Part shown: piece after piece, positions 18,373-18,854 of the stretch | Layout: each line of letters starts with the position of its first letter | Position numbering within the stretch: position 1 is the first letter of the stretch | Origin: Escherichia coli O157:H7 | GTDB taxonomy: Bacteria; Pseudomonadota; Gammaproteobacteria; Enterobacterales; Enterobacteriaceae | Strand: one strand, 5' to 3' | DNA length: 64,000 bases | Assembly (NCBI RefSeq): GCF_013167455.1 | Contig: NZ_CP038328.1 | Program-made: the position numbers and the translations under genes | The notes under the pieces: model-generated | Database searches by the model: none | What the model saw: only the letters and a program-made list of their open reading frames with translations | What the model was told of the DNA's origin: nothing

Positions 18373-18854
18373 GTAAAACCTCATCGTTTTGTTATATCCG
18401 CAGGAAGCGCGGCCATCATCCCGCCAGAGGCTGAAGATGTTAGTTACGACCGGGTAACCGAAAAAAAACCGGCACGCCCCGAACGTTGCCATGAAAGTTT
18501 CGTGCTAATTCGGCTTCCGTACCGGTTAACCCGATTCATCTAACAAATGAATGAATCGGCAATTTGCATTCCGTCGACTTATGATTTGCGACGGCAGAAA
18601 GATAACTTGTCATACAACTTTAAAAGGTGAGAGCCATCACAAATGTGCGAATATTTGTAGGGACATTACCTGACGACAGCGAGGCCAGTACTGGCGCGGC
18701 CTGCAGAGAGATTTACCACTTTGAGAGTAATTTTTTTAACTACGTTTATTGATCTAACTCACGAAAATATCTTCGGACTCTGGAAATTGGTGTGATAACT
18801 TTGTCAGCATCGCACCATAAGCAAGCTAGCTCACTCGTTGAGAGGAAGACGAAA

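Follow-up and report, generated by a model that had tools for sequence, protein, structure and literature searches.

The 482-bp spacer between the divergently transcribed genes exuT and uxaC is very probably the known control region of the exu regulon, in which, judging from the sequence and its conservation, ExuR would bind a single 19-bp operator at each of the two promoters. ExuR represses exuT, uxaCA, uxaB and exuR; hexuronates act as inducers, and CRP is required. The operators that we describe here are already known from published and curated site tables, and they are reportedly carried also by Rodionov et al. 2000, Suvorova et al. 2011 and RegulonDB. A nearly fixed distance between the two operators and a structured exuT leader may be the only new parts of this analysis.

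The exuT-uxaC spacer in Escherichia coli and other Enterobacterales

All positions given here are those of the window, the stretch of 64,000 nucleotides of E. coli DNA that was analysed. A first-pass annotation, made from the sequence of the window alone, had singled out 18373-18854 as an exuT-uxaC divergent region, and these borders match exactly the spacer between the two start codons, that of exuT at 18372 on the minus strand and that of uxaC at 18855 on the plus strand. According to the RefSeq annotation of the matching locus, exuR (16168-16944) and exuT (17074-18372) lie on the minus strand and uxaC (18855-20267), followed by uxaA, ygjV and sstT, lies on the plus strand, which confirms the gene order exuR-exuT / uxaC-uxaA. 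The spacer is 100% identical to that of O157:H7 chromosomes and corresponds to 3,244,742-3,245,223 of MG1655, in reverse orientation. It belongs to the E. coli core genome and was found in 5419 of 5426 complete E. coli genomes.

For comparison with other species, UxaC was used to scan one genome per species, which gave 80 loci. The arrangement of exuR and exuT facing uxaC is kept in 16 Enterobacterales, which span Escherichia albertii, Citrobacter, Enterobacter, Kluyvera, Mangrovibacter, Pantoea, Pectobacterium, Serratia, Rahnella and Acerihabitans, and each of these 16 species has exuR linked to the locus. The spacer alignment holds 16 sequences, one from the window and 15 from these loci; Rahnella, with its spacer of 860 bp, was excluded on account of this length.

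The list of open reading frames for the window also offered a 472-aa form of ExuT, starting at an ATG at 18492 on the minus strand, 120 nt upstream of the annotated start of the 432-aa protein. We rejected this extension as coding sequence because its ATG is not conserved and its indels are not multiples of three.

ExuR operators upstream of exuT, uxaCA and exuR

The exuT operator, AAAGTTGTATGACAAGTTA, occupies 18603-18621 on the minus strand (core TTGT-ATG-ACAA, centre 18612), and the uxaCA operator, AAATTGGTGTGATAACTTT, occupies 18784-18802 on the plus strand (core TGGT-GTG-ATAA, centre 18793). A third box, AAAGTGGTATAACAAATAT, lies upstream of exuR at 16973-16991 on the minus strand (core TGGT-ATA-ACAA) and is the site of autoregulation. 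All three have the form of an ExuR operator, a TKGT-N3-ACMA pseudo-palindrome with A/T-rich arms, with one core mismatch in the right half of the uxaC box (ATAA in place of ACMA), and all three sit upstream of genes that ExuR represses. The near-palindromic GntR-type sites that had been proposed for this region are borne out, as pseudo-palindromes of the GntR/FadR kind. In Klebsiella, loss of exuR derepresses both exuT and uxaC (PMC8612250).

Each of the three boxes is equal, letter for letter, to a site in the E. coli ExuR table of Suvorova, Korostelev and Gelfand (2015; PMC4494728, S1), in which AAATTGGTGTGATAACTTT is assigned to b3092-3091 (uxaCA), AAAGTTGTATGACAAGTTA to b3093 (exuT) and AAAGTGGTATAACAAATAT to b3094 (exuR); these published sites are comparative-genomic predictions, evidence of the same kind as the conservation analysis presented here. 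When set against the operators of the E. coli exu regulon as a whole (exuT, uxaCA, exuR and uxaB; PMC4494728), the sites are no different: the 19-mers, the GT-N3-AC core and the genes are the same. The claim of autoregulation made in the first-pass annotation was also well founded, since the motif that it reported upstream of exuR, TTGTTATACCA, belongs to the autoregulatory ExuR site, identical to that of b3094 (PMC4494728). This motif is real and unique in the window, although it is found at 16977-16987 and not at 16996-17006, an offset of 19 bp.

The boxes were scored with a symmetric ExuR matrix derived from 26 published sites of other operons in nine species; the exuT, uxaCA and exuR sites were left out so that circularity would be avoided. 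In the 64-kb window, the three highest scores fall on the exuT box (22.1 bits), the exuR box (20.6 bits) and the uxaC box (18.4 bits), in that order, and the next match reaches 15.1 bits. Among 3000 trials with shuffled spacers, the score of the exuT box and that of the exuR box were reached in 0% and that of the uxaC box in 0.03% (0.0003). The fourth-best match, TGATTGGTATCACAACATT at 21898-21916 (15.1 bits), lies within ygjV. Orthologues vary there at synonymous positions, and a shuffled window is expected to hold 0.28 equally strong matches; we rejected it as an operator, as it is probably a chance match in coding sequence.

A similar picture is given by AAATTGGTATACCAATTT, the 18-bp UxuR/ExuR operator used in a UxuR biosensor (PMC8092373). 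Only four 18-mers in the window agree with it at 13 or more of the 18 positions, and three of these are the operator boxes, all in the same register: the exuR box (14/18), 18604-18621 (13/18) and 18784-18801 (13/18). The probability of at least two such sites in a shuffled spacer is 0.0004. The remaining 18-mer (14/18) is within a 443-aa open reading frame and was dismissed as a chance match. A high matrix match at 6110-6128, in an open reading frame of 443 aa, was likewise rejected as an operator.

Conservation picks out the same positions. In the alignment of 16 Enterobacterales, where the column mean is 65%, the most conserved 18-nt stretches of the spacer are 18785-18802 (97.6%) and 18603-18620 (97.2%), and the next best, 18628-18645 and 18750-18767, are both CRP-like. 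At the uxaC operator, conservation spans AAATTGGTGTGATAACTTT and ends after TTT/G. The core of the exuR box, AGTGGTATAACA, is identical in 18 of 19 aligned sequences, with Rahnella differing at 2 of the 12 bases.

CRP-like sites, predicted promoters and a model for repression

The spacer contains two CRP-like sites. The first, GGTGA-GAGCCA-TCACA at 18626-18641, has its midpoint at 18633.5, at a distance of 21.5 bp from that of the exuT operator. It agrees with TGTGA-N6-TCACA at 9 of 10 positions, and its two halves, GTGA and TCACAAA, show little or no variation in the 16 species and in 44 stacked lineages. The assignment to CRP draws on this consensus match and on established knowledge, and the site is referred to here as putative. 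The second, ATTGA-TCTAAC-TCACG at 18748-18763, has its midpoint at 18755.5, with that of the uxaC operator 37.5 bp further downstream, and agrees with the CRP core at 7 of 10 positions. It is kept in Enterobacteriaceae and in Pantoea-like lineages (as TGTGA-N6-TCGTA/TCGCA), but could not be detected in lineages that resemble Serratia or Acerihabitans.

Between the two CRP-like sites there is a further conserved element, GCCAGTACTGGCGCGGC (18684-18700), which contains the palindrome GCCAGT/ACTGGC. It is kept as GCCAG-N3-TGGCGCGG, at a fixed offset, in the 44 stacked lineages, and it is also found in the 16-species alignment. On inspection this element does not look like a sigma-54 promoter, and a sigma-54 reading of TGGCGCGGCCTGCA was rejected, as its GG-to-GC spacing is 2 nt too short. 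A generic scan of the spacer for sigma-70 promoters and terminators returned one promoter-like match, which was not above chance, and no terminators.

The likely -10 hexamer of exuT is TATCTT (18599-18604, minus strand), which comes directly after the operator on the exuT strand and stands at the right distance from CRP-like site 1. In 68 stacked lineages its first T, its A and its last T are conserved and the middle varies, which is the TAnnnT signature. With TATCTT as the -10 element, exuT transcription would start near 18592, CRP-like site 1 would be at -41.5, as in class II promoters, and the operator would cover about -29 to -11; it is on these grounds that we infer the position of the exuT promoter and its overlap with the operator. 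For uxaC, the promoter is ambiguous. TAACTT, within the operator, could be the -10 element, which would put CRP-like site 2 at about -53, a non-canonical position. With the alternative hexamer CAGCAT (18805-18810), CRP-like site 2 would be at -61.5 and the operator would lie over the -35 region and the promoter spacer; in the 68 lineages, CAGCAT is without a conserved A at -11. Under either candidate -10 element, the uxaC operator would overlap the core promoter.

This layout resembles that of other CRP-dependent divergent sugar-acid regions, with class II or class I promoters, in having one CRP-like site per promoter and a repressor operator over the predicted core promoter. Compared with class II CRP architecture, the exuT geometry fits (CRP-like site at -41.5, operator between it and the -10 element) whereas that of uxaC is ambiguous, the sites and starts considered here being predicted ones.

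In the model that we propose, ExuR, a dimeric GntR/FadR regulator encoded just downstream of exuT, would bind at 18603-18621, 18784-18802 and 16973-16991, each of the two spacer operators being placed just downstream of a CRP-like site and over predicted core promoter positions. As the exuT operator fills the gap between the class II CRP-like site and TATCTT, bound ExuR would be expected to occlude RNA polymerase. The inducer (galacturonate, glucuronate or their isomerisation products) would release ExuR, and cAMP-CRP could then activate transcription.

Spacing between the two operators

To follow the distance between the operators across more lineages, metagenome contigs were scanned for the exuT operator (box 1) together with CRP-like site 1, which gave 120 loci, 113 of which also contain the uxaC operator (box 2). 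With the genomes added, these loci fall into 69 clusters whose spacers are at least 10% apart in sequence. In 65 of the 69, the boxes, measured start to start, lie 181-184 bp from each other (182 bp in 44 and 183 bp in 16), even where the spacer is only 53-58% identical to that of E. coli, and also in lineages that lack a recognisable CRP-like site 2. The flanks vary more: across the 16 genome loci, leader lengths of 124 to 323 bp occur at exuT, and 54 to 70 bp separate box 2 from the uxaC ATG. The outliers, at 170/171 bp in a single Serratia-like lineage (-11/-12) and at 202 bp (+20), are displaced by close to whole helical turns.

In Rahnella, the distance of 472 bp between the boxes reflects a duplicated module, in which box 1 lies 183 bp from a box 2-like site and a copy of box 1 lies 186 bp from box 2; the spacers of these two modules are only 58% identical to each other. 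Inspection of the 860-bp spacer of Rahnella inusitata (locus L015, 4464-4953) revealed a second, diverged block of box 1 and CRP site (ATAACTTGTCATACCGATTTAAAGTTTGAGTGACATCACAAAA) and an extra box like the uxaC operator (AAAGTGGTGTAACAACTTT), which together make up a second, tandem copy of the entire control module.

The fixed operator spacing suggests a constraint on length, possibly one of helical phasing. It is possible, although we regard it as rather doubtful, that the two operators act jointly, with ExuR, perhaps together with CRP or with a factor at GCCAG..TGGCGCGG, building over about 181 bp a single higher-order complex (a DNA loop or a phased nucleoprotein assembly) that controls both promoters. 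Such a complex would account for a distance that is held despite drift of the spacer and next to variable flanks, for the near-helical steps of the outliers, for the 183 and 186 bp kept in the Rahnella duplicate and for the persistence of the spacing without CRP-like site 2. However, our analysis gave no sign of ExuR tetramers, and a literature search on ExuR and looping returned nothing specific to a complex of this kind. At 10.5 bp per turn, the centre-to-centre distance of 181 bp makes 17.2 turns, so that the operators are not clearly in phase, and the outliers amount to only two independent events. Moreover, other conserved elements (GCCAG..TGGCGCGG and CRP-like site 2) could fix the length without a loop, many of the lineages are related Enterobacteriaceae, and the metagenome loci had been chosen for an intact box 1 and CRP-like site 1.

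ExuR and UxuR

The first-pass annotation had described the repeated motifs as candidate operators for ExuR/UxuR and had suggested a scan with a matrix for the two regulators. ExuR and UxuR are paralogues with similar motifs, exuT and uxaC are both listed in a broad UxuR regulon (PMC10016265), and the spacer boxes agree at 13 of 18 positions with the operator that was used for UxuR. It is nevertheless improbable that the boxes are mainly UxuR operators, or that they are shared equally by the two proteins. The gap between GT and AC is 3 nt in ExuR sites and 2 nt in UxuR sites (PMC4494728), and the boxes have GT-N3-AC, the ExuR spacing. Furthermore, genomic SELEX with UxuR alone recovered nothing other than the gntP/uxuA spacer; the UxuR regulon of RegulonDB, as presented in the same study, includes exuR and neither exuT nor uxaCA (PMC5934670).

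A UxuR-type matrix was derived de novo from six GT-N2-AC sites in the regions upstream of gntP/uxuA, uxuR, uidA and uxaB. It includes a wrong site for uxaB, AATGTGTTCTACCACTTT, where the published site is GAAGTTGTCTGACATCTTT (PMC4494728), and our conclusions therefore rest on the 26-site ExuR matrix. With the UxuR-type matrix the spacer boxes score only 4-6 bits, a level that is equalled by 71-83% of shuffled spacers. In the suggested scan the exuT, uxaC and exuR boxes rank 1, 3 and 2 with the ExuR matrix, and the spacer boxes are at background with the UxuR-type matrix, in line with the 3-nt and 2-nt gaps of the two site types and with the make-up of the RegulonDB UxuR regulon. The top match of the UxuR-type matrix in the window is AAAGGGGTTAAACAATTAA at 22393-22411 (16.5 bits; 11.9 bits with the ExuR matrix), but its location at the convergent 3' ends of ygjV and sstT argues against a role as an operator.

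The operators of the paralogous GntR/FadR regulator UxuR (uxuAB/gntP, uxuR and uidA; AAATTGGTATACCAATTT, PMC8092373) are like the boxes studied here in being A/T-rich palindromes with TKGT/ACMA cores, with agreement at 13-14 of 18 positions. However, they are even palindromes with GT-N2-AC (TGGTnnACCA), a definition from which the two spacer boxes depart through their GT-N3-AC. Of the earlier label, the ExuR part stands, as both repeated words overlap ExuR operators, and the UxuR part does not, on account of this spacing and of the UxuR-type matrix scores; 'ExuR/UxuR' is too broad for the spacer boxes, which by their sequence are of the ExuR type.

The box upstream of exuR scores well with both matrices (20.6 bits with the ExuR-type and 14.9 bits with the UxuR-type matrix) and, on these scores, may serve both regulators. 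A dual role would fit the reported cross-regulation of exuR by UxuR (PMC5934670). Shimada et al. proposed an exuR promoter, TTTTCA-16-TAAACT, just upstream of the exuR box, and this promoter would place the exuR operator at about +1 to +20.

The repeated word ATAACTT(T)GTCA

What had drawn attention to the spacer was a repeated word, ATAACTT(T)GTCA. Its two copies are ATAACTTGTCA at 18602-18612 and ATAACTTTGTCA at 18795-18806. Of the longer motifs first reported around them, ATAACTTGTCATACAACTT is present at 18602-18620, as had been claimed, and ATAACTTTGTCAGC is present at 18795-18808, 1 bp from the position first given (18796-18809). The pattern ATAACTT(N0-1)GTCA has 2 matches in the 64-kb window, both in the spacer, against 0.06 expected from dinucleotide shuffles; as the pattern was picked after the sequence had been seen, this comparison overstates its significance.

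The string is real, but it is not the unit of recognition, which is the 19-bp pseudo-palindrome. On the plus strand, the exuT box reads TAACTTGT-CAT-ACAACTTT and the uxaC box reads AAATTGGT-GTG-ATAACTTT. At the exuT box, ATAACTT consists of a flanking A and operator positions 1-6; at the uxaC box, it consists of positions 12-18. The same word can occur at opposite ends of the two operators because the core of the outer arm, AAsTT, is its own reverse complement. GTCA forms part of the exuT box core (TTGTCAT), whereas at the uxaC box it falls outside the operator, in unconserved sequence, so that of the second word only ATAACTTT is inside the operator. The repeated word is, in short, a by-product of the operator arms, with flanking bases that match by chance. 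The uxaC site as first drawn does overlap a real operator, but its register and extent were wrong, the operator (18784-18802) beginning 11 bp further upstream; the ExuR sites of PMC4494728 coincide with the first of the two reported sites and overlap the second by only 8 bp.

That ATAACTT(T)GTCA should itself be a directly repeated recognition word, with the uxaC operator at 18795-18808, is very unlikely: the word does occur twice on the same strand and nowhere else in the window, but the second site in that register scores from -5 to -27 bits with the ExuR matrix, GTCAGC (18803-18808) has about 50% column identity in the 16 species and near-zero information in the 68 lineages, the 11 bp immediately upstream (AAATTGGTGTG) are invariant, the extra T breaks the register between the copies, and the sites in PMC4494728 are the palindromic frames.

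A predicted structured leader of exuT

The start predicted for exuT transcription implies a 5' leader of about 220 nt (18373-18592, minus strand), and this leader contains conserved hairpins. RNAalifold, applied to 11 Enterobacteriaceae, returned five helices, with 91.8% of cells in pairs and changes on both sides at nine pairs; none of 500 shuffles reached this, and slid controls pair at 29-38%. Several G-U pairs of the leader would be A-C mismatches on the plus strand, which indicates an RNA in the exuT sense. The hairpins include CCGTCG/CGACGG at 18573-18596, one of variable sequence at 18534-18562 and CCGCG/CGCGG at 18399-18414, near the ribosome-binding site.

When 41 distinct leaders are compared, the local hairpins persist, with good covariation in the one near the ribosome-binding site. 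The long-range helix then gives way to a local one, which makes the global fold tentative. The structure is confined to the Enterobacteriaceae; in more distant genera the leaders have other lengths and could not be brought into alignment. A search of 16900-18900 against Rfam returned only sub-threshold noise and no family match. The predicted fold suggests that the exuT leader may be an uncharacterised cis-regulatory RNA.

Discussion

In its central result this analysis adds little, as it finds again the textbook control region of E. coli hexuronate catabolism. It does correct the register of the uxaC operator, and this matters wherever that operator is to be mutated or transplanted, for example in biosensors for galacturonate or glucuronate: the sequence to use is 18784-18802 and not the repeated word. 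The near-constant distance between the operators finds no mention in the accessible part of the text of PMC4494728. Should this spacing stem from a loop or from a joint complex, the exu divergon would be a simple and conserved model for the coupled repression of divergent promoters by a GntR/FadR regulator. Furthermore, with a structured leader, the expression of exuT, which encodes a transporter that is important in gut colonisation, would also be controlled post-transcriptionally.
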